A stretch of DNA of 64,000 nt from a virus (Duplodnaviria > Caudoviricetes): IMG/VR virus record IMGVR_UViG_3300012344_000386, positions 64,001 to 128,000 of that record; one strand, 5' to 3'. Below are positions 4,737 through 25,198 of this stretch, one piece after another (positions within the stretch are counted from its first letter, which is position 1; each line of letters starts with the position of its first letter). The translations under genes were made by a program, and so were the position numbers. The notes beneath the pieces were generated by a model, which worked only from the letters and a program-made list of their open reading frames with translations, did not search any database and was not told where the DNA came from.

Positions 4737-7700
4737 ATGGGAAAATTAAATAAAGACGAGCTTTTAGCAGGTGTTCGTAATATTATTCAAGAAAGTTTTA
4801 ATAGAGATACAGAAAACTTTGATGGCACTACTAAGTTCAATATTCATAGATATGTGAATGGTCTTATCGAAGAAGGTCATAAGAACCCCGATTTGATGAA
4901 CTATTTGGTTGAATATAATAACGCACTTTCTAATGGTGCATAGGACTTTATGCTTTTTGAACAGTTCGGACAAGGACTTACTAAATATGCAAAAGGCAAT
5001 AAGTCTGTTAAATCTGTTATTGAGCAGATGAACAATACCTTAGCAACAGATGGTGCTAATCTTGTAGGTTATCAACTTATTGAACAACTTAATGATCCTT
5101 ATATAAAGGATGAGGTTAAGTATGCTTATAATCAATATGTAGCAAATAAATGTCAGGAAACAAAGGATACATTGGTAGATGTATTGTCACCGCTTGTAGA
5201 AGAAGGAAATCCTATTGCTACAAAATTAAATATTCTTATTACAGAAGAATCTTCAATGTCCGCTAATTTTATTCATGCAGATTATGTAAATGAATCAGAA
5301 CAAAGAGATTTTGAGAAGAAGCTTCAGGAAAAACGTGATAAGAAAACAATGGACCAAATTTTCTCAAAGGTCCAACGTTATATCGATGAAAAACTTGATG
5401 AAGATGAAAAAGCAAAGTTAACAGAAAAAGAAAATTACTGTTTGAATGCTATTGCTAATAATCAAGGTATTAATCTTTCCGAACATATTAATAATATCCG
5501 TCATTCAGACGCTTCTTCCAACCAACGTCTTATGGAGGTTATTAATCTTTATTCAAACGCAATTAATCAAGGTGCATATGAAGAGAGACTTTATGAGACT
5601 TTCCTTCAGAACGTATCTAAGTTTAATTATCTTCTTCCTGTTAGTAAGGCAATGAAATCTATTGTCGAGAAAGTAGATTCAAAACGAGAGGAAATCACAC
5701 TTACTAAGATTTTGGAGGAAATGAAGGATGATCATTCTTCATTCATTTATGTAGATCTTATTCAAGAAGATGTTGCACGTTATGTAAAGGAGCCAAATGC
5801 AATTAATAGAGTTCAGTTACGTAATGCTTTAATGCCATATGCTTCTGATCCATATATTAACGAAATGTTCAATGTTATTTATTCTGATAACTCACGTAGA
5901 GCTAATGAACTTACAGAGAAAGCATTGAATATTAAGGACCAAATTAATATTATTAGAGAGAACGCTACAGTTTCTAACATTTATACACCAGTACAATATG
6001 TTAAGGAAAATGAAGCAATTTTCAATGTTAATGGTCAATTCTATGTAAAGAAAGGAAATAACATTACAGTTCTTGATGAGAAGTATGTAGATGAACTTGA
6101 TGAGAGATTTGTTGAACTTTGTAGACTTGTAAATGATCCACATGTAGAGATTAATGAGGATAATATTATTCTTCATGGTAATGATAAGTATGCTACGATT
6201 TATGAAGGCTATGTAGACCTTTATGGACATAAGGAGTCAAGAGAGTCACTTCGTAATCTTAGAGAAATGTGCATGAAGTATGATGATTACGATACAAACT
6301 TCTATATTATGTGTTCATGCCTTTTGGAGAACTTTAATAATATCGCAAAGATTGATTGGGCAAAGCATGTAACTCTTAATGAGAATAATAATATTAATGC
6401 AGATTTGTTTAGACTTGACCAAAATATTTTCATTGCAACTCATAACGATGCTATTGGACAACATACATTCTATAGAAATGTAAATCCTATTTTCTGTAAG
6501 AATAAGTTGAATGAACATATGGGTATTAACGTATCTTCATTGTTTAGTGATTTGCTTCCATCTCAAGATAAGATCATTCTTAAACTTAATGAGACAAAGA
6601 ATCAATATGAAGATTCTATCGAGAAATATGAAGATATGATTGATAAACTTAATAAGGCTCTTGAGTCTGCTTCTGATGAAAATAAAGAGAAACTTGAGAA
6701 AGCTATTTCTGACGCAGAAGAGAAACTTGATGATATTAAAGCTGAATATAAAGAATGGCAAAAACAAGCAGATGATGCAACAGGCGAAGATCATTCAGAT
6801 GATGAAGATACTGATTCAGAAGCGGATACAGAAGATACAGATGATGATACAAATGATGGTTCTGTAACTAAGGAAAAACCAAATGAACCAATGTCTGATG
6901 ATGAAGTTGACGCAAATAAAGATGAACTTTCACAACCGTTAAGTGGAGAAAATGGAGATTCTGAAGCAACTGATAACTTTAGTGATGAAGAGTCTGATGA
7001 ATCTGATGATAGAGTATCTGATGATGAATTCGCTAAGTTCTTAGGTAGTGATTCTGATGATGAAGATTCTGAGGAAGATGGTACTGGTTTTGATGATGCT
7101 GCCGCCGATGCAATAGATGCTGATAATGATGAAACAGAAGATGAACCAGATTTTGAGGATTCAGATGATGAAGATTCAGATGAAGATATGTTTACTTCTG
7201 ATGATGATAATGATCAAGATGATGAAGAAGCATTTAAGGAAGTAAGTTTCGATGACGATAATAATTCTTCAATTGATTCAGAGGACGATGACGATATTTT
7301 CGAACCAGAAGAAACAGAAGATGATACAATTTCTGATGAAGATAATGATGAAATGAATTCTGAAGATGATACTATTGGTGACACTTCTGATGAGGATGAA
7401 CCTGAAAATACAGGTATGACAACTGTTGATATGGGTACAGATGATGAAACGTCTGATGATGAAGTTGCTGAACCAGGTGACGAAGCTACAGATGTATTTG
7501 GTGGCGATACAGAAGATCCTCTTGGAACAAATACGGATGTTGAAGAAAATCCAGAGAATACACCTAAAACAGAGGAAGAAGAAAAAGAAGATGCATACCA
7601 ACCTAAATTCTCTTATAAGATTGCAGATGTAATGTTTGATGAGAATGTTAAGGAAGGTAAGAAAGAAAAATCAGGTTCTGTTATCGTAATCGTTCCTATG

Positions 7701-15459: not shown

Positions 15460-15492
15460 AAAGTCTCTAAGATTAATTTCTTAGAGACTTTT
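15460..15492. terminator. bidirectional intrinsic terminator
   Basis: AAAGTCTCTAAGA / TCTTAGAGACTTT between convergent genes. Confidence 0.8.
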
Positions 15493-17178
15493 CTTTTTAT
15501 ATATAAATTTTAAATTACCAGGGCCGAATACTCTATAATGTTTTAATGAATGCATAATTTCTATTTCTGTTAAATTCTTATCATATCCTAATGATACTAA
15601 TTTATTTTTAGTATAATTCAAACGATTTTCTCTTATATTATTAACTACCCACCAATATTCATTATCTATTATTTTATCTATAATAAATCCACTATTAATA
15701 TATGATGATCCTTTTAAATCAATCCATGATAAATCCGCATAACTATATATAGATGATATATTAAAATTAGTAATAATATATTTCATTAATTTAGAAAAAC
15801 CACCAATAACATTAATATATTTTTTTGTACATAAACGTAATAGCTCATATGAAACAGTGTCTTTATTATGTCCTATTAAGTTTCGAGATTTACCTAATCC
15901 TATTACTTCAACTAATTCATTATTATAATATAATCCAACTTTTATAGATGCATTAACAGATCCATGTAAATGATTTTCATTACAAAAATCTCTATATAAT
16001 TTAGGAGTTAATTCTTTAATTATACATTTTCTTGCATATACATGTTTATTTAATTTTAATTTACTAGATAAACGACTTAATATAATTTCTTTCTTATTAA
16101 TATCATTCCAATCATCTTCCCATATATAAATTAAAGAATAACCTAATTTTTCTATAAATTCTTTCTTTTTATAATGATAATAATTATCTGATTTTTGTAA
16201 TTCAGAATGCCAATATAAACCATTACAATCTATTGCTAAATTTAATTCAGGAATTAATATATCTACTTCATAATGTTCCTTACCATTATAAATATGTTTA
16301 TTAGTTAATATAGAATATTTTGTATCTTTTATTAATTTACCAATTTCATTTACAACATCTTTTTCAAAATTACTCATAAACGTTAATTCTTTATATTCAC
16401 ATTTATTGCAATATATATGCTTTATATTTCTGTAATAATAATTTATTGCTTGTCTATTAATTTCATTTATATGACCACATTTATTACATTTAATTTGAAA
16501 TGTATCATTATTATTAGAAATATATGTATAATTCATTTCTGATATTTTTTTAATAATATCATTTAATGAATTTATTTTTCTAGCTTTTGCTGATTTATCA
16601 GTAATTACTTTATGTGCATTATTCCCATATTTTTCATATATTTTATTACGAACTTCCTTTGATTCTAATGCACATTTAACACCATATTTTTCTAATGTTG
16701 ATTTTTCTCTATTCTTATTTGCTAATTCTGTTTGAACACCACATGATGCACCATTATGTTTCTTCTTAAAATCTTCAAAGAATTTTTTCTTAAATTCAGG
16801 ATCTTGCATATTATGTGTAATTCCATTATGATTTTTCGCATATGTTTCTCTCATCTTTTTCTGAATTTCTTTAAAGTCATGGTGATATTTATTTCCATAT
16901 GCAACTGATTTTGCTCTACATTCCTTTGTACCACATGTAGGAAAATAACCAACAGGAAATTTATGGAATTTTCTAGATTTACCACAATGAGGACATTTTT
17001 GAATTTCTGTTATATTATTATACCAACAATATACACGTTCAGATTTCTCCGGATTATGTTCATCTAAAAATGATGTTTTCTTTTTTAATGTATCTAATAA
17101 ATCTTCATGGTATCGTAATAAATTATTAAATCTTTTTATATTGAAATCTTTTCTATATTCATCTAAATTTAATTCCAT
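15481..17178 (-). CDS. Hef-like homing-endonuclease-type protein: Zn fingers, Vsr/DUF559-like nuclease, C-terminal Mom/GNAT-like domain
   Basis: CxxC fingers and EKYGV repeats; EVDILIPELNLAIDCNGLYWH..IWEDDW; then ARKC..NHLHG..ELLRLC..SYAD..GF. Confidence 0.75.
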   Translation of the reverse strand: MELNLDEYRKDFNIKRFNNLLRYHEDLLDTLKKKTSFLDEHNPEKSERVYCWYNNITEIQKCPHCGKSRKFHKFPVGYFPTCGTKECRAKSVAYGNKYHHDFKEIQKKMRETYAKNHNGITHNMQDPEFKKKFFEDFKKKHNGASCGVQTELANKNREKSTLEKYGVKCALESKEVRNKIYEKYGNNAHKVITDKSAKARKINSLNDIIKKISEMNYTYISNNNDTFQIKCNKCGHINEINRQAINYYYRNIKHIYCNKCEYKELTFMSNFEKDVVNEIGKLIKDTKYSILTNKHIYNGKEHYEVDILIPELNLAIDCNGLYWHSELQKSDNYYHYKKKEFIEKLGYSLIYIWEDDWNDINKKEIILSRLSSKLKLNKHVYARKCIIKELTPKLYRDFCNENHLHGSVNASIKVGLYYNNELVEVIGLGKSRNLIGHNKDTVSYELLRLCTKKYINVIGGFSKLMKYIITNFNISSIYSYADLSWIDLKGSSYINSGFIIDKIIDNEYWWVVNNIRENRLNYTKNKLVSLGYDKNLTEIEIMHSLKHYRVFGPGNLKFIYKKKSL

Positions 17179-17180
17179 AA

Positions 17181-18836
17181 TTATAATTTATATTTTAAAA
17201 TTCCTGCACTATAACATTTAACTAAATCTTGTTTATGTTCAGAATCTTTAATTTTATTTAATCTATTATATCTTATTCCTTTATACATCCATTTCCAATT
17301 ATCACTTCTGCTTATATAAGTCATTCCAAGATTCTCATAAAGTTTACCGTTTGATATATCACATTCTGCATAACTGATAATATTTTTATAATCATAATGT
17401 TTTTTAAAATGTGAAAATAATTTACTGGCGCCTCCAATTATTTGATAATTAAGTTTATTACAAAATCTTATTATCTCTATATCATCATTATCAGATTTGA
17501 ATCTGGATTTACCAAATGTCATTATTGAAATTAATTCATCATTATAATAAAGTCCTAATCGTATTTTATCTATCGAATATCCTTGAAGGTGATTTTTATT
17601 TATAAATTCTTTTGCTATATTATAAGGAACTTCTTTAATTATTGTTTTCCTTGCATATATTCTGATATTATATATTCCTAATTTTGATTTAATAAGTGAA
17701 TATACTATATCTCTTTTATATAAGAGATCATCTTCCCATATGAATATTAATTGAATTCCTTTATCTTTACATTGTTTCCATTTATTATAATGGTAATTTT
17801 TTGTTTTAAATTTATCGGAATGCCACCAACAGCCATTATATTCTATAGCAACATTATTATTAGGAAAATAAAAATCCAATTCACCTTTAATAATATCTTG
17901 TGTATTTTTAATTACATTTAAATTTAATGAATCAATAAATTTTCCTAATTCTATTTCTTGAGATGATTTATTAAATCCATATAAGTGTTTATCACAGAAT
18001 TTTCTATATTCATTTGCTGTTGGTGAAAATGAAACTTTAGTATCACATATACAACAATGTGGTCTTCCTTTTAAATCATGAAGAAATTGATAATATACTT
18101 CTTTCATAACTATATTATCATTAAATGATTCTACATATTTTTCAAAATAAGTTATTAGAATTTTATAATATTTAGGAAAATAAGTTAACCACCATTTATA
18201 TTTCATATTATGTGAATATTTCTTATAAAACTCAGGAAATATCTTTTGGAATTCATTTATTTCTTTTTCTGTAGGTATATATGTATCTATTATGTTTTTG
18301 TTACATTGAATACAGAATGTTCCGTTATTATATTCATGTATTTTATTTGCCGTAGTTTTATAAACCGGTATATTACCATGAATACAATAATTATTGAATA
18401 TATAATAATTTGGTTTTGAATAATCACAGTTCATATTTTCTGTATATGAATCTACTTTATGTATATTGACATAATGTTTCAATGCACCTTGTTTACATTT
18501 ATCAGCATGCTCATTAGACAAATGTTGATATTCTGCTGTACATTCTTTACAACAACATTGTTGAAATCCTATTTTGAAATTCCGTAATTTCGTGTTATTG
18601 TTACAATTAGGATTTTTACATTTAGGTATAGTAGGAATATCTTTTAATATACAATAAAGTATTTCTCTGAATTCATCTTCAGAAAAATGTTGTTTATATA
18701 CATTATAAAATTCAGGAAATTTATTAAATACAGATTTTTTAATTAATGATTTTGATTTTATTTCATTATCTATTATATAAGTTTCTTTTAATCCTTTTAT
18801 TATATCATTGGTAAATATTTCTTGAATAGTGTTCAT
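17181..18836 (-). CDS. Hef-like homing-endonuclease-type protein (paralog of the adjacent gene)
   Basis: ELDFYFPNNNVAIEYNGCWWH..IWEDD; ARKT..NHLQG..EIIRFC..GGASKLF..SYAEC..GKLY. Confidence 0.75.
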   Translation of the reverse strand: MNTIQEIFTNDIIKGLKETYIIDNEIKSKSLIKKSVFNKFPEFYNVYKQHFSEDEFREILYCILKDIPTIPKCKNPNCNNNTKLRNFKIGFQQCCCKECTAEYQHLSNEHADKCKQGALKHYVNIHKVDSYTENMNCDYSKPNYYIFNNYCIHGNIPVYKTTANKIHEYNNGTFCIQCNKNIIDTYIPTEKEINEFQKIFPEFYKKYSHNMKYKWWLTYFPKYYKILITYFEKYVESFNDNIVMKEVYYQFLHDLKGRPHCCICDTKVSFSPTANEYRKFCDKHLYGFNKSSQEIELGKFIDSLNLNVIKNTQDIIKGELDFYFPNNNVAIEYNGCWWHSDKFKTKNYHYNKWKQCKDKGIQLIFIWEDDLLYKRDIVYSLIKSKLGIYNIRIYARKTIIKEVPYNIAKEFINKNHLQGYSIDKIRLGLYYNDELISIMTFGKSRFKSDNDDIEIIRFCNKLNYQIIGGASKLFSHFKKHYDYKNIISYAECDISNGKLYENLGMTYISRSDNWKWMYKGIRYNRLNKIKDSEHKQDLVKCYSAGILKYKL

Positions 18837-18965: not shown

Positions 18966-20909
18966 ATGCAATTAAATGATTATATAAAGCAATATAATAA
19001 TAATGAAATAAGTTTAAGACAATTAATATATATAGTTAGAAATCATGAAGATATTAATAAAGAAGTATATGAGTTTACAGATTTTTTAAAGAATGATGAA
19101 GATATATTAGAGAGACTTTATTATGTTATTCATGATTTGCATGAGATAGTAACATGTAAGTATTGCAGTAAGAAAGCAGTATGGAGTGGACGTATAGGAA
19201 ACGGATACAAAACTACATGTGGATCTTATATATGTAAAGCGATGCATGCTTCTATGACTCGTGAAAAATACAAGGATAGTTTTGAGATTGCTAAACACAG
19301 GGATTCAAAATTCGTAGATTGGCAGAATTCAATTACTGAATTAGATGAAATGAATGATTATATTATTAAGAATCATATCATATATGATAAATATGTTCCA
19401 TTGATTACTAATAAGTACATATTGGATTATCTTAATAATAGATATAAAGATTCTGCATCTATATTGGAAACTGTTCAACGAATAAGGAAAGGCGTAGAAG
19501 AAAAACCTACATGTCCCGTATGTGGAAAACCTGTTATTTGGGTTGGTAAGAATACAAAGTTGTATACTAAATATTGTTCAACAAGTTGTTCCAGTAAGGC
19601 TCCAAGATTTAAATATATTCCGACACTATTGATTAAGTATACTGTTGATGATAATATAAATGAGATTATTGAGAAACAAGATAAGATTGATATAGAAAAA
19701 GAAAAGCAGGAGAAATTAAAGAAATCAATTCATAATAAGGATAAGGAAACGAAAAAAACATCAAGTATCAATGATGTATTTCCTATTAAGACTGAGACAA
19801 ATAGTTTAGATATTAAATCAGAAAAGAAAAAAGAAAAAATAGTTGATAAGAATACACCTATATCTGATTTATTAAGTAAGCCTAAATACAAACCTGTATT
19901 GATTAACGGTGAAGAAGAGACAGAAGAAAATATGTGTAAGAGCGCTAATGCTACATCCGCACATGTTAATGAGATTGTCGATAAGTATTTAGATAGAGAG
20001 TTTGAAAAAATTCAGAATATATATTTCCCACCTTCTACTGTTCATCCTGTTACAGAATTAGATTGTATCAAGGAATTTGAATATATAAAATCAAAGGATA
20101 GGAATTTGAAGACACCATCCAAGATTATTAAGATGTTTCATAAGTCTATTATATATGCACATATTGAAAATAGTGTTTCACCTTTTGATGGATGGAATAT
20201 GATTAAAAATGATAAGGAATTATTCAGGAAGTTATTATGTAATAGATTGAAATTTGCTGATTGGTATAAATCAGAAGAGCATAGGAAATATATTGATTTA
20301 TGTTATGTTCCTGATTTTATATATGGAATTGGATTGAATGCATCTAGGATGTTTCAGACTGTTACATATTTCAAACCGGATTTAGCAAAATATCTTATAA
20401 AGAAATATCTTAATGAATTTGATACAATATTTGATCCGTTCTCGGGATATAGTGGAAGAATGATAGGAACATTGGCATGTAATAAATCATATATAGGTAG
20501 AGATTTATGTGAATCAAGTGTTAAGGAAAGTAAGGAGATATATAAGTTTTTGAAACCTATAATTGATTCTGATTTATTAGTTAACGTTACATGTGATTTA
20601 GGAATTGCAGATTGTTGTAAGAATACTGGTAAATACCAATGTTTGTTGACATGTTCGCCATATGGAAATATTGAAAATTGGCCTGGAGTAGAGTCTGTTA
20701 ACAGAGGATGTGACGGATGGATAGATATTTGTCTTAAGAATTATGATTGTCAGAAATATTTGTTTGTGACAGATGATTTGATTACAAAATATGTGCCATA
20801 TATAAAAGAAACGTTGACAAACAGATCTCATTTTGGTTCCAATAAAGAATATGTTGTTATAATAACGAAAGAAGAACGGGATAAGATTATACAAAATATT
20901 AAAGGTTGA
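18966..20909 (+). CDS. amino-DNA methyltransferase (N4C/N6A) fused to N-terminal Zn-finger modules
   Basis: SAM-binding motif I IFDPFSGYSGR, YIGRDL, motif IV-like TCSPY; N-terminal CKYC and CPVCGK..YCSTSC. Confidence 0.75.
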   Translation: MQLNDYIKQYNNNEISLRQLIYIVRNHEDINKEVYEFTDFLKNDEDILERLYYVIHDLHEIVTCKYCSKKAVWSGRIGNGYKTTCGSYICKAMHASMTREKYKDSFEIAKHRDSKFVDWQNSITELDEMNDYIIKNHIIYDKYVPLITNKYILDYLNNRYKDSASILETVQRIRKGVEEKPTCPVCGKPVIWVGKNTKLYTKYCSTSCSSKAPRFKYIPTLLIKYTVDDNINEIIEKQDKIDIEKEKQEKLKKSIHNKDKETKKTSSINDVFPIKTETNSLDIKSEKKKEKIVDKNTPISDLLSKPKYKPVLINGEEETEENMCKSANATSAHVNEIVDKYLDREFEKIQNIYFPPSTVHPVTELDCIKEFEYIKSKDRNLKTPSKIIKMFHKSIIYAHIENSVSPFDGWNMIKNDKELFRKLLCNRLKFADWYKSEEHRKYIDLCYVPDFIYGIGLNASRMFQTVTYFKPDLAKYLIKKYLNEFDTIFDPFSGYSGRMIGTLACNKSYIGRDLCESSVKESKEIYKFLKPIIDSDLLVNVTCDLGIADCCKNTGKYQCLLTCSPYGNIENWPGVESVNRGCDGWIDICLKNYDCQKYLFVTDDLITKYVPYIKETLTNRSHFGSNKEYVVIITKEERDKIIQNIKG

Positions 20910-21909: not shown

Positions 21910-22273
21910 TATTAAAAATAATAATATTTTCTTTATTTATATATTGAACTTTTTAATTATTACATAATATAAGATAATGTATAATTAGTGATATAACGTT
22001 TTTTTCATTAATAAATAATAGGAATGTTTATACGCTAATTCTTTTTTGTTTAATTTAGAAAAAGTAAATACATTTATTTGTTGGTTTGGTACAGACAAAG
22101 ATGTAAGTAAATGGTTGAAACGTGCTGATATATTAAATAAATGTACAAAATTTATTGATATTAATACAATAAAAATTAATAAATCAGATGGAATTATTTA
22201 TGAAATTATTCAAAAAATAAATGATTTAATTAATTTAGATTAAATTCTATTTTTATATTTAAAATAATATATG

Positions 22274-22281
22274 TATCTTTG
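22274..22281 (+). promoter_or_regulatory. Bacteroidota primary-sigma -7 element (TATCTTTG)
   Basis: Matches the TAnnTTTG consensus ~30 nt upstream of the methyltransferase ATG; the same TGTATCTTTG recurs at five more intergenic sites. Confidence 0.7.
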
Positions 22282-22312: not shown

Positions 22313-23665
22313 ATGAAACAAAATAAAATATATAAGTTTACAAATAAAACAATAAATATTAAGCAATATATTAAGGATATTAATAATATTCATAATATTG
22401 TTATATTTGGTAACACTACAAATTTATTAGGAACATTTGAACGTGTATACTCTGATAAAGAAAATGAGATTGGTTACGAATATAATGGTATATTATATGA
22501 TAATCCATGTCCTTTACCAAAAATTGGTAACTTAGAAAATTCTATTGATAATTTAGATATTTTTGATAAATTAATAGATAATAATGTGGATATACTTATT
22601 ATTTGTGGTAATGATGTAACGAAAACGTATTGGGAAGATATATATGAATATTATGTAATACAAAATAATGGAATTGAAATTAAAAATTTTAGAATGCTTA
22701 ATTTCGATGAGAATAAAAATAGTTATGAATATGAAGTGAATAAGATAATTGAAAAGAATAAAAAATTTGATGTAATACTTGCAAATCCACCATATGGAAA
22801 TATTGGTAAAAAAATGCTTTATAATTTTTTTAATATTGCAAATGAAATAGTAAGTATACAGCCATCTAATTGGTTAATTACAAAAAGTCAAAATAAAAAA
22901 ATTACAAATAATGTGGATAATTGTGATTTTGTAGAAATTGAAACAGTTGATGGTAATGAATATTTTGATGCAGCTATTGCAGGACGAATAACAATAAATC
23001 ATTTTATTCAACAGAATAATAGTGCTCATCATAATAGACGTTATATATTATTTGATGGAAAGAAATATGATAAATGTAATGAAATAACATTAGCTAGTAA
23101 TGATTCTTTATTAACAGAATTTAAAAATATTGTTGAACCATTATATTTAAATGATAATTTACAAAATCATATAAAAAGTATACCAAATGTACACGTATTC
23201 GGTAATGCACCAGTTGAATATAACCCAGATGATAATTGGTGGATTTTTAGAATTACAAGATTTAGTGTACATCCGGATGGTAAACATACTAATTGGTGCA
23301 TTAATTCTCGAAATAATTTATGTATATATAAATTTAAAGATATAAAAAATAAAGTAGAAAAAGGAAATCAATTTTTAAAATATTATATACCTTTTAATAA
23401 TAAACAAGATGTTAAAAATCTTAATAATTATATACAAACTGATTTTTGTAGAATTTGCTTATATTTAATTCAAACGTCATATGAATTAGGGAGAGGAGAG
23501 TGTAAATGTATTCCTTATTTTGATTTTTCTGATGATATATTTAATAAATCACCTTCTGAAATAGATGATTATTTATTTAAGAAATATCACATATCTCAGG
23601 AAATAAGGACGCATATTGAAGAAATACTTCCGGATTATTATAATATAAGAAAAGGTAGAGATTAA
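22313..23665 (+). CDS. N6-adenine methyltransferase catalytic/specificity subunit (Eco57I/type IIG-like, NPPY), expressed C-terminal cassette A
   Basis: KKFDVILANPPY (motif IV), SIQPSNW, GNEYFDAAI; C-terminal IP..DF..ID.YLFKKY.IS..I..I. No SAM-binding motif I in this ORF. Confidence 0.75.
   Translation: MKQNKIYKFTNKTINIKQYIKDINNIHNIVIFGNTTNLLGTFERVYSDKENEIGYEYNGILYDNPCPLPKIGNLENSIDNLDIFDKLIDNNVDILIICGNDVTKTYWEDIYEYYVIQNNGIEIKNFRMLNFDENKNSYEYEVNKIIEKNKKFDVILANPPYGNIGKKMLYNFFNIANEIVSIQPSNWLITKSQNKKITNNVDNCDFVEIETVDGNEYFDAAIAGRITINHFIQQNNSAHHNRRYILFDGKKYDKCNEITLASNDSLLTEFKNIVEPLYLNDNLQNHIKSIPNVHVFGNAPVEYNPDDNWWIFRITRFSVHPDGKHTNWCINSRNNLCIYKFKDIKNKVEKGNQFLKYYIPFNNKQDVKNLNNYIQTDFCRICLYLIQTSYELGRGECKCIPYFDFSDDIFNKSPSEIDDYLFKKYHISQEIRTHIEEILPDYYNIRKGRD
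23035..23110 (+). repeat. 76-bp perfect inverted repeat, left copy (inside the methyltransferase CDS)
   Basis: TAGACGTTATATATTATTTGATGG...AGTAATGATTCTTTA is the exact reverse complement of 24259..24334. Confidence 0.95.
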
Positions 23666-24334
23666 TTCTCTACCTTTATATTTTTATATTTATTTAAATC
23701 TAAACTATAATAGTTTGGTACAATTTTTAATATATGATTAACAATATTATTTAATATATTATATTTGTCAAACAAATATATATCAATATCTTCTATTGTC
23801 TTACTAAATATTTTATTATTAAAATCAACCCATGGAATATGTGTTAATGTATCATCATCTAAATGTAAATTTTTCTTAAAACAATATATACATGTACTAA
23901 CAAATAATGTATGCGTATATTTCCAAAAATTTTGTAATTCATTTTCATTATCAAATTCAATAAAATATTGAACATATTGATTACCATTTCTACTTATTTT
24001 ACTATTTAATTTATCTGCAATACCACAAACATCTGTATATTTTTCTTTATTTGAAAATAAATTATAGAACTCACCTATCAATTTAGAGCGGGTATTCGAA
24101 TGCCCGCTAAATGCTTTAATTCTACAAATATATTTATTTGATGGAAATTTTACATGTGGAGCATATGTATATGCTTTACCATTATTTGTTACTTTAATAT
24201 AATCACTTAATTTATTTGTTAATTTATCTATATTTGTTTTTTCAATAAAAGAATTAAGTAAAGAATCATTACTAGCTAATGTTATTTCATTACATTTATC
24301 ATATTTCTTTCCATCAAATAATATATAACGTCTA
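23662..24334 (-). other. silent alternative C-terminal (TRD) cassette B of the methyltransferase
   Basis: Frame is open from the right repeat (RRYILFDGKK..NDSL) through track ORF 23662..24081; in-frame TAA and no ATG upstream; homologous to the C-terminus of 22313..23665. Confidence 0.85.
24259..24334 (-). repeat. 76-bp perfect inverted repeat, right copy
   Basis: Exact reverse complement of 23035..23110. Confidence 0.95.
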
Positions 24335-24392
24335 ATACGATAAACAATTTAAGTTATTAATTATATAAATAATAAATAAATATAATTTAATT

Positions 24393-24707
24393 ATGGAAAA
24401 ATATCTATATTTATATTATCAAGAAGGTAATACAGATAATATATATAATTTAGAACTTTCTGATTTAGATTTTGATGAATATAAAGAAAGTTATCCAAAT
24501 TATAATATATGTACATATTGGAATAATATTCCAGATACATTTTCTCTATATCACTTAAATTGTCCAAAGTTTGGAGGTATGTCTGGTATTGCATATTGGG
24601 ATAACGAGGATCCAGAATTACAACATTATACACATTGTTTTTTATATAATACAGATAAAGTATATATAAAAAATCTTGTTGAACGTGTTTTAAATACATT
24701 GAAATGA
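24393..24707 (+). CDS. hypothetical protein
   Basis: 104-aa ATG ORF between cassette B and the SAM-binding subunit; no recombinase motif recognised. Confidence 0.65.
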   Translation: MEKYLYLYYQEGNTDNIYNLELSDLDFDEYKESYPNYNICTYWNNIPDTFSLYHLNCPKFGGMSGIAYWDNEDPELQHYTHCFLYNTDKVYIKNLVERVLNTLK

Positions 24708-24721
24708 TTAATTAATGTAAT

Positions 24722-25198
24722 ATGAATAGTAGTTTTGATATAGAATAGTTTTTGTGTTTAGATAGTTATGCAACGGAAGAGAGAGTTTCCCGAAGAAAGG
24801 GATCAGCAGGTTCCCAGGAGTTTTTTACACCGTTTGAATTAATTAAGCGTATGTCTGATAAAGTTTCAGAAGATCAGTGGAATAATACAGAATCAAATTT
24901 CTTAGAGCCATCATTCGGAAATGGAAATTTCGTTATCTATATAATATATAATAAGATACAACATGGTTCAACATGGAAACAAGCATTAGAACATACATAC
25001 GGAACAGAACTAATGCAAGATAATGTTATAGAAACACATGGACGAATATTAGAAATGTTATCTAAACTTAATATAGATTATAATGTTGATACAGCAAAAT
25101 CAATATTAAACAATAATCTCGTTTGCGCAGATTTTTTCAAATGGGATTTTGAGAATTGGTGTCCGATAAAAGAGAATAAATGTGAAGCACTATTTTGA
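24722..25198 (+). CDS. methyltransferase SAM-binding subunit (motifs X-I-II-III); TAG at codon 9
   Basis: QEFFTP (motif X), FLEPSFGNGNF (motif I), YGTEL, CADFF. ATG 24722 is in frame with track ORF 24752 through one TAG. Confidence 0.8.

Follow-up and report, generated by a model that had tools for sequence, protein, structure and literature searches.

DNA inversions that exchange one end of a coding sequence are found in phages as well as in bacteria. The G segment of phage Mu, inverted by Gin, and the C segment of phage P1, inverted by Cin, each hold two convergent alternative C-terminal cassettes with the constant 5' part of the gene outside, an arrangement that recurs in the locus described below; what these segments switch is the host range of the tail fibres, and they depend on a dedicated serine invertase with short sites plus an enhancer. 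In bacteria, inversion that swaps the target recognition domain (TRD) of a methyltransferase is established for hsdS in Type I restriction-modification (R-M) systems (PMC7672463), and the same kind of exchange is established for Type II/IIG-like BREX, DISARM and Cj0031-type enzymes (PMC9881135). Here we describe a stretch of 64,000 nucleotides (the window, meaning the whole stretch analysed; positions 64,001 to 128,000 of IMG/VR record IMGVR_UViG_3300012344_000386) from a Lak megaphage, in which a perfect inverted repeat brackets the TRD-coding end of a DNA methyltransferase gene together with a silent, inverted alternative. We consider it very likely that this locus is a working two-state TRD inversion switch. 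The original prediction, made from the sequence, had taken the bacterial hsdS inversions that switch specificity as its precedent; that precedent is sound (PMC7672463), and it also covers bacterial Type II/IIG-like methyltransferases (PMC9881135).

The Type I invertons and shufflons, such as SpnIII (cod) of S. pneumoniae and those of B. fragilis and M. pulmonis, resemble the Lak locus in having inverted repeats within the specificity coding sequence and promoterless alternative TRDs (PMC7672463, PMC6620402); population heterogeneity of methylation specificity, a property of these systems (PMC7672463), would be a further likeness. Unlike them, the Lak locus is without HsdS, HsdM and HsdR, carries one TRD inside the methyltransferase chain, has two states only and is phage-borne. 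BREX type 1 PglX, class 1 DISARM and the Cj0031 homologues (Milman et al., NAR 2023, PMC9881135) are, as here, single-chain gamma-type N6A methyltransferases in which the recognition part is traded with a silent inverted partial copy via repeats inside the coding sequence. Even the layout in which the chain is split after the variable region, so that one inversion suffices, has already been described for a Brevibacterium BREX locus (PMC9881135). The loci in that paper belong to defence systems on bacterial chromosomes, with a recombinase at least in the L. rhamnosus BREX locus, whereas the Lak switch resides in a lytic-type megaphage, with no recombinase found, another methyltransferase family and no helicase or nuclease genes in this record. 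From the Mu and P1 segments it differs in its target, a DNA methyltransferase, in its arms of 76 bp and in that no invertase was found.

The locus is built around an open reading frame (ORF) of 450 amino acids (22313-23665, plus strand) without TAG codons, which in the orientation of this record, state A, runs from an N-terminal Rossmann-like domain through an NPPY motif (residues 158-161) and a repeat-encoded box into TRD-A. A repeat search returned two arms of 88 nt (23023-23110 and 24259-24346) that are 95% complementary and separated by 1,148 nt, and an exact scan found within them a perfect 76-nt inverted core, with its left arm at 23035-23110 (plus strand) and its right arm at 24259-24334 (minus strand), confirming the perfect repeat that had been predicted inside the NPPY methyltransferase gene. 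No longer perfect inverted repeat whose arms lie within 15 kb of each other occurs in the 249,187-bp contig, where the runners-up reach no more than 27 nt (hairpins) or 26 nt of low complexity. The left arm codes for the box RRYILFDGKKYDKCNEITLASNDSL(L), which lies where catalytic domain and TRD meet, and the right arm is in frame with the silent cassette, so that, as in known inversion switches, inverted repeats inside coding sequence bracket the variable part of the enzyme. We divide the 450-aa protein into a constant part N (residues 1-241, encoded at 22313-23034, plus strand, outside the invertible segment), the repeat box R (residues 242-267, 26 aa) and tail A (residues 268-450), which is encoded by cassette A (23111-23665, plus strand; 183 aa and stop) and expressed in this record. 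Cassette B (23662-24258, minus strand; 197 aa and stop) encodes the silent tail B and has neither a start codon nor a TAG. The 1,148-bp segment consists of these two convergent C-terminal cassettes and nothing else; because their stop codons overlap (TTAA, 23662-23665), it is 100% coding. A symmetric terminator-like hairpin (23651-23677, both strands), with an 11-bp stem and a T-run on each strand, is centred on the overlapping stops; three terminator-like sites were found in the region against 0.3 expected from shuffles, and this one was reported on both strands. A flip would leave the gene end and the hairpin the same, and the hairpin would be terminator-like in either orientation.

The minus-strand frame that begins at the right arm stays open over 227 codons, until the stop at 23662-23664. 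The repeat is not preceded by a start codon, and an in-frame TAA (24349-24351, minus strand) upstream of the right arm closes the silent frame. In a tblastn comparison that included the box, B was 39% identical to the expressed tail over 212 aa (E 8e-33); without the box, A and B are 32-33% identical and diverge most in mid-tail, that is, in the middle of the recognition domain. The ORF analysis and the alignments thus agree with the earlier description of cassette B as a start-less minus-strand frame that continues from the repeat, lies just behind a TAA and is homologous to the expressed tail, with differing TRD-like middle parts. The C-terminal tails are also unlike, ending in …YYNIRKGRD in A and …YYSLDLNKYKNIKVEN in B. 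The frame of B remained open in 0 of 20,000 dinucleotide-preserving shuffles, the composition-based chance being 7e-10, and an expressed copy that is 100% identical exists (P0281, see below). Neutral decay of the cassette, which would have spoken against a switch, is not seen in this record, and cassette B is by all appearances maintained as coding sequence. A G+C-rich near-palindrome (AGCGGG…CCCGCT, 24086-24116) stands out within the very A+T-rich cassette B, and a truncated B-state protein (P0282) shifts frame exactly there.

Both predicted fusion products occur in public assemblies, where the protein collection held two clusters, one of N+R+A and one of N+R+B. The exact 450-aa protein of the window (P0271) is found on 25 contigs, the longest of 556,746 bp, and P0275 is in the A state on a 550,789-bp contig. 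In the other cluster, P0281 (464 aa, on a 99,564-bp contig) matches N, R and the silent B of the window at every residue (100%), P0277 matches them at 100, 100 and 99.5%, respectively (two contigs, the longest of 550,082 bp), and P0282 is a truncated N+R+B protein. The in-frame joining of the catalytic half to cassette B, which inversion had been predicted to bring about, is thus a product that exists in P0281 and P0277. Ten proteins with the whole constant part (nine full-length ones and the truncated P0282) were aligned over N+R, leaving out four shorter members, two of them in the A state (P0273 and P0274) and two of B type (P0276 and P0279). Haplotype 1, without a single difference over 267 residues, carries A in P0271 and P0275 and B in P0277, P0281 and P0282; haplotype 2, with 1 of 269 residues different and 16-17 differences from haplotype 1, carries A in P0272 and B in P0278 (553,180-bp contig). 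Haplotype 3 (P0002, P0280) was found with B only, and P0001, with A, sits eight differences away. State B is represented by five distinct full-length sequences on at least seven contigs (three of them about 550 kb) in three haplotypes. Because haplotypes 1 and 2 each carry A and B with near-identical constant parts, the presence of at least two lineages in both states points to repeated events, faster than amino-acid change. The comparison of orientation among relatives that the original prediction had proposed thus yields both the A and the B fusion among assemblies, and not the single orientation that would have counted against it. Other collections contributed little: scans of viral contigs by protein, by a 38-nt repeat piece and by alignment found no relative, in a set from which near records may be omitted; in metagenome contigs a single distant locus turned up (55% identity), situated where its contig ends; genome contigs gave two (26% and 25%), neither with inverted repeats of at least 30 nt; and tblastn of P0002 against the phage collection matched three records, none covering 80% and none being an N+B record.

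Four sequencing runs (X20, X1, X2 and X3) were compared with the window as assembled Logan contigs. In run X20, all nine pieces were at least 99% alike, and a 259-nt contig crosses from the constant part through the repeat into A, free of differences. Run X1 is another matter: its 3,236-nt contig (depth 120) stops inside the left arm, the arm forms a unitig of its own (83 nt, depth 227 versus 120 in the flanks) with seven differences from the window, and a 1,208-nt contig (depth 120) stretches from arm to arm. The X1 arms are identical to each other although unlike those of the window; the arms therefore appear to evolve in concert and to be identical within a genome. The concern that the repeat might be a misassembly is not upheld, as the exact 450-aa protein recurs on 25 contigs, the X20 contig runs through the repeat into A and the X1 repeat unitig has twice the depth of its flanks.

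Judged by its modelled fold, the enzyme is a TaqI/Eco57I-like (gamma-class) N6-adenine DNA methyltransferase. An AlphaFold2 model of the 450-aa chain, built from 105 aligned sequences, had a mean predicted local distance difference test (pLDDT) score of 84.9 and a predicted template modelling (pTM) score of 0.80. The best Foldseek matches were M.BseCI (E 7.6e-8) and CamA (E 2.2e-7), and the top match by VIA-align was M.TaqI (Z 13.7, root-mean-square deviation 4.4, 276 residues aligned), whose chain 24-413 superposes on model residues 11-409 through both domains; LlaBIII, an enzyme of Type ISP (Z 12.3, 314 aligned), and CamA (Z 12.2, 326 aligned) were also matched. The model thus shows a class I methyltransferase fold and a TaqI-like C-terminal TRD. 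The NPPY at residues 158-161 conforms to catalytic motif IV, (N/D)PP(Y/F); across the alignments N158 does not vary and P160 varies hardly or not at all, and residues 1-150 contain no canonical motif X or I. Sequence profiles are less generous: the Pfam family Eco57I (PF07669) scores the chain at 16.8 bits, below its cut-off of 25.3, which weighs against this assignment, and there was no PADLOC hit and only NCBIfam matches far below cut-off; relatives exceed the Eco57I cut-off, namely P0196 (61.7 bits), P0166 (37.0) and the methyltransferase of Lak-B2 (27.1). A phmmer search against the PDB gave nothing significant for this protein or for the 158-aa protein encoded downstream. M.TaqI, CamA and M.BseCI share with the Lak enzyme the class I fold with NPPY and a C-terminal TRD, and differ from it in that identity is about 10-16%, motifs X and I lie in the separate 158-aa protein and the N-terminal 140 residues form a non-canonical Rossmann-like half. 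No HsdS-like protein was found among the ORFs around the locus; the TRD sits in the NPPY chain. Because the repeat box marks the border between catalytic and recognition domains, a flip would swap the whole TRD; given the 32-39% identity of A and B, the DNA sequence recognised by the one fusion most likely differs from that of the other.

The possible partner of this chain is encoded by a constant gene for 158 aa (24722-25198, plus strand), in which a TAG at codon 9 is read as a residue and which, by our reading, contains motifs X (FFTP), I (LEPSFGNGNF), II and III. We think it probable that its product is the S-adenosylmethionine (SAM)-binding partner of the NPPY/TRD protein. A small gene of this kind adjoins the methyltransferase module in five of the five Lak loci that have one. 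Pfam and PADLOC gave no match and NCBIfam only matches far below cut-off, whereas an exhaustive search with the protein returned 972 representatives at E<=1e-3. Among the 150 relatives listed, most are stand-alone proteins of 130-200 aa, and in four (P0161, P0166, P0167 and P0201) the domain is C-terminal in a chain of 444-480 aa whose N-terminus carries a motif-IV-like sequence (NPPY, NPPF, NVPW and NFPF); P0161 is the only one of these fusions plainly alignable to the Lak methyltransferase. Two Pfam families matched P0166 over cut-off, Eco57I with its positions 73-147 on residues 1-61 and N6_Mtase with its positions 20-86 on residues 360-432, and P0196 has the reverse, TaqI-like domain order. 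A model of the complex, computed from the window sequences only and without alignments, scored 0.75 against 0.01 for the best control, although for halves of a known fold such a score may stem from likeness to solved structures; of 78 solved complexes 51 attained the mark used for this score, as did 2 of 108 mismatched pairs. At least 70% of contacts recurred between runs, partner pLDDT was at least 76, and strand beta1 of the small protein was paired with beta4 (FDVIL, residues 152-156) of the large chain. Against this pairing stands the single-chain AlphaFold2 model, in which the first 140 residues of the chain itself occupy the seat that the small protein takes in the complex model. The split is older than the switch, as this gene pair also occurs, free of repeats, in an uncultured Bacteroidales genome. 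In all five Lak loci the small-subunit gene contains a single TAG, close to its start (window 24746-24748; L001:5693-6184, L002:6865-7341, L003:6409-6900 and L004:5720-6157), and the residues flanking it (…SFDIE-TAG-FL…) are conserved in four of the five; for comparison, the fusion genes of Lak-A2 and Lak-C1 contain 27-29 TAG codons, and the 450-aa ORF and cassette B of the window none.

We propose the following mechanism. Residues 1-241, with the catalytic NPPY, and the 26-aa box would remain constant, while recombination between the identical 76-bp arms would flip the 1,148-bp segment, so that TRD-B (197 aa) takes the place of TRD-A (183 aa) in frame. In both states the central hairpin would end the transcript, and the phage population would carry two methylation patterns. 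The enzyme would probably work with the product of 24722-25198, which supplies motifs X and I-III. A single inversion would suffice because the split of the chain just after the TRD puts the variable part at the 3' end of the ORF.

Similar modules occur elsewhere among Lak phages. Spare inverted cassettes lie behind the methyltransferase in four of six Lak genomes (this one, Lak-A2, Lak-C1 and Lak-B2); Lak-B4 has none and Lak-A1 lacks the module. Lak-B4 encodes, in this order, a superfamily 2 (SF2) helicase of 597 aa, a protein of 286 aa and a methyltransferase of 463 aa, followed by the small gene, and the methyltransferase has the same N part until just past NPPY and is entirely different thereafter. 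Lak-B2 has the gene order of Lak-B4 with a methyltransferase of another subfamily and, downstream, an inverted partial cassette with repeats of 111 nt (88%) and 277 nt (79%). In Lak-A2 and Lak-C1, an N-terminal domain, a ResIII helicase and the methyltransferase-TRD part are fused into 1,438-1,439 aa (PADLOC REase_MTase_IIG, PDLC03626, E 3.9e-83; Pfam ResIII 33.1 bits against a cut-off of 22.5), and the inverted cassettes downstream use the same box as repeat arm (64-69 nt, 83-84%). An outer repeat pair in Lak-A2 (108 nt, 95%; L002:3932-4039 and 6685-6792) would exchange the whole NPPY-TRD module, and a third complete cassette of a short form on the minus strand (L002:5845-6705) starts at a motif IV of its own (NAPY); the Lak-A2 inversion system thus appears to be nested, with three cassettes. 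These fusions resemble the Type ISP or helicase-bearing 'Type IIG' enzymes (LlaBIII, PDLC03626) in joining helicase, methyltransferase and TRD; unlike those enzymes, the window protein has no helicase or nuclease part and no PADLOC hit, and all Lak versions have the extra small subunit with SAM motifs. The module of the relatives evidently sits in an R-M-like island with a helicase and a putative nuclease, 'nuclease' being a reading of a D...(E/Q)xK-like pattern only; Pfam found nothing for the 286-aa protein of Lak-B4 or for the 244-aa protein of Lak-B2 beside the helicases. The putative nuclease and the SF2 helicase are present in Lak-B4, B2, A2 and C1 and absent from this record, which, compared with Lak-B4, is without 3,030 bp (L001:971-4000) that hold a 165-aa ORF, the SF2 helicase gene and most of the 286-aa gene. 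The join is at window position 22058, where a 65-aa remnant ORF (22046-22243, plus strand) retains in its last ~61 codons the 3' end of the Lak-B4 286-aa gene that follows the helicase gene. In four of four runs, contigs that reach 22057 from the right run on into unlike sequence, the loose end of X20 being Lak-B4 sequence; the missing stretch may therefore reflect a minority variant or the way in which this record was assembled. In Lak-A1 (L005:5616-6608), the whole R-M-like island is replaced; a 330-aa ORF there resembles the Lak-A2/C1 fusion at its start, matches the final residues of the small-subunit gene (…NWCPIKENKCDALF) at its end and is unrelated in its middle. The Bacteroidales genome mentioned above (L014:2596-11601) encodes a 1,160-aa helicase-methyltransferase fusion of the Lak-A2 type with an overlapping small-subunit gene, two large downstream genes with weak PADLOC matches to ZacA/ZacB and DrmC-like proteins, and a Vsr-like gene upstream, without inverted repeats.

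Several observations weigh against an active switch. The evidence for the two states derives from metagenome assemblies, where a segment flanked by inverted repeats may in principle be put together in the wrong orientation; haplotype 1 is skewed, with 26 contigs of full-length A against three of full-length B and one truncated. The contigs of the four runs contain no joint at which the strand changes, and they are blind to orientation because the inverted repeat breaks the de Bruijn graph. The B-state genomes are known here from protein sequences, and a search with the A tail (60 proteins with E<=1e-20 among 72 candidates) gave no fragment more than 90% identical on a large contig; a silent A might not be called as a gene, because cassette A has no Met codon. 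In Lak-A2, C1 and B2 the likeness between repeat arms is no more than 79-95%, and their switches may therefore act seldom or have ceased to act. Taken together, such points might suggest that no switching occurs, the other orientation being a mis-assembly, as the breaking of run X1 contigs at the repeat and the prevalence of state A in haplotype 1 would allow, and cassette B the relic of a duplication. We regard this as very improbable, since a 76-bp repeat is shorter than usual reads and is normally threaded by assemblers, state B recurs in distinct full-length sequences from three haplotypes, a relic would hardly stay open for 227 codons at 20% G+C or hold its arms identical while strains diverge, and the layout recurs in Lak-A2, C1 and B2. 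It could also be that the recognition domain is replaced rather than reversibly inverted, by gene conversion from the silent copy or by recombination between co-infecting phages, with the inverted copy as donor or by-product. The exchanges among relatives would fit this: in Lak-A2 the expressed cassette joins an A-like core to a B-type tail, so that cores and tails reassort among Lak genomes; Lak-A2 and Lak-C1 have the silent cassette in common and differ in the expressed one; and the methyltransferase of Lak-B4 changes entirely just after NPPY. Replacement would moreover be compatible with B-state genomes known as proteins only. However, a single crossover between perfect arms yields exactly the N+B product that is observed, P0281 equals N, box and B of the window residue for residue, and the all-coding segment with overlapping stops and a symmetric hairpin suits flipping better than donation, which makes replacement improbable as the main explanation. 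A further alternative accepts the flip and places its effect elsewhere, in recognition by a TRD-targeting host defence or inhibitor or in coupling to helicase or nuclease, and not in the DNA motif. In its favour, the cassettes differ in their C-terminal tails as well, which in Lak-A2 reassort independently of the cores; yet it is the DNA-recognition domain of M.TaqI on which the exchanged part superposes, the greatest divergence between A and B lies in mid-domain, and TRD exchange changes the motif in described systems (PMC7672463, PMC9881135), so that we hold this alternative to be unlikely.

No dedicated site-specific recombinase was found at or near the locus, in a record that is 45% complete and whose genome could encode one at a distance; the earlier remark that no invertase is visible nearby thus stands, and it extends to complete Lak genomes. 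A tyrosine recombinase (PF00589) was found in none of six records (this contig and five complete Lak genomes) and an IS110-type recombinase (PF01548) in none of five, whereas a RecA-family gene was present in all five records searched, including a RecA/UvsX-like gene in this phage (G000:C1:152053-152586). Homologous recombination across the arms is the route that we favour, with a confidence just short of even, because of the 76 identical bp, the arms evolving in concert, this RecA/UvsX-like gene and the precedent of spnIII, which rearranges without any known site-specific recombinase (PMC6620402). It is conceivable instead, and we would not call it remote, that a site-specific invertase drives the switch, encoded either by the Prevotella host or in the unseen 55% of the phage genome. 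A recombinase does accompany most of the described inversions that alter genes (PMC7672463, PMC9881135). The arms, with 76 perfect bp, far exceed what a recombinase core needs, and the recombinase counts given above tell against a phage-borne enzyme. Gut Bacteroidales, for their part, are said to be rich in invertases. A small serine recombinase (PF00239) is encoded in two of the six records, Lak-C1 and Lak-A1, and not in this contig, Lak-A2, Lak-B2 or Lak-B4; as an invertase for the switch it was set aside, being present in Lak-A1, which lacks the module, and missing from the cassette-bearing Lak-A2 and Lak-B2. In Lak-A1 its Resolvase domain occupies residues 59-192 of 201 with no C-terminal part, a domain order that, we presume, recalls IS607-type transposases and not Hin/Gin invertases. 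The TAG-rich 201-aa gene adjoins a 449-aa ORF without a Pfam hit (L005:743-2749 in Lak-A1; W03:C1:17648-18049 in Lak-C1), and the pair looks like an inserted mobile element.

The window lies in a 249,187-bp virus record with a G+C content of 26%, in which reading TAG as a residue raises the total of open frames of at least 200 aa from 37,431 to 63,592 aa. All eight phage-collection records that match the locus are Prevotella phage Lak genomes, the best being Lak-B4 (97.7% identity over the aligned 39% of the query), and the CheckV completeness of 45% agrees with Lak genomes of ~540-550 kb. By these signs the source is a Lak megaphage of the Prevotella phage Lak-B lineage with recoded TAG. IMG/VR tags the record as 'provirus'; an integrase-type recombinase was found neither in the record nor in the five complete Lak genomes, and the label seems doubtful. 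A 104-aa ORF to which no function is assigned (24393-24707, plus strand) lies between the switch and the small-subunit gene; it is missing from the Lak-B4, A2 and C1 loci, and it gave no Pfam family, no Atlas lead and no match in the five Lak loci L001-L005. At 15481-18836 and 18966-20909 are two ~550-aa Zn-ribbon proteins (minus strand) and, just upstream of the switch locus, a 647-aa protein, the last with the motifs DPFSGYSG and CSPY and read as a second, unrelated methyltransferase-like gene. Thirty-two nt before the ATG, TATCTTTG (22274-22281, plus strand) matches TAnnTTTG, which we take to be the consensus of the Bacteroidota -7 promoter box; this is weak evidence for a promoter, as TAnnTTTG occurs at 0.82 per kb on both strands of the window and the match may be due to chance. 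A sigma-70 promoter scan was uninformative (42 sites against 46.1 expected).

Three things are new here: the locus is carried by a lytic-type megaphage, the enzyme is by family a split TaqI-like one from an ISP/IIG-like island, and no invertase was found; the kind of switch is itself known in bacteria. No report of an invertible methyltransferase in a phage genome was found in the literature covered, which lay outside subscription journals and supplements; PMC8346664 makes no mention of methyltransferase, restriction or inversion, and PMC7824862 mentions Lak-B8 and not inversion. Hedging against host restriction, as originally proposed, is one option for the purpose of the switch. Tentatively, we suggest a Lak phage-side 'phasevarion', that is, a recombinase-free, homology-driven flip-flop (nested in Lak-A2) of a split methyltransferase or R-M module, which would give virions alternative methylomes or restriction specificities and might serve as bet-hedging against Prevotella R-M systems or as a weapon against competing phages.

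If the switch is real, a virus and not only its host would diversify its own epigenetic identity, phase-variable methylation specificity being known as a bacterial strategy. It might account for the persistence of a single megaphage lineage among Prevotella strains that differ in their restriction systems; another use that it might illustrate is a change of targets by R-M modules carried by phages in inter-phage conflict. The locus would also be a natural case of inversion without a dedicated invertase, and its split methyltransferase would illustrate how a variable domain at the 3' end of a gene makes one flip enough. Lak assemblies would then differ at this locus for biological reasons, and the linking of these phages to hosts through methylomes would have to allow for two motifs.

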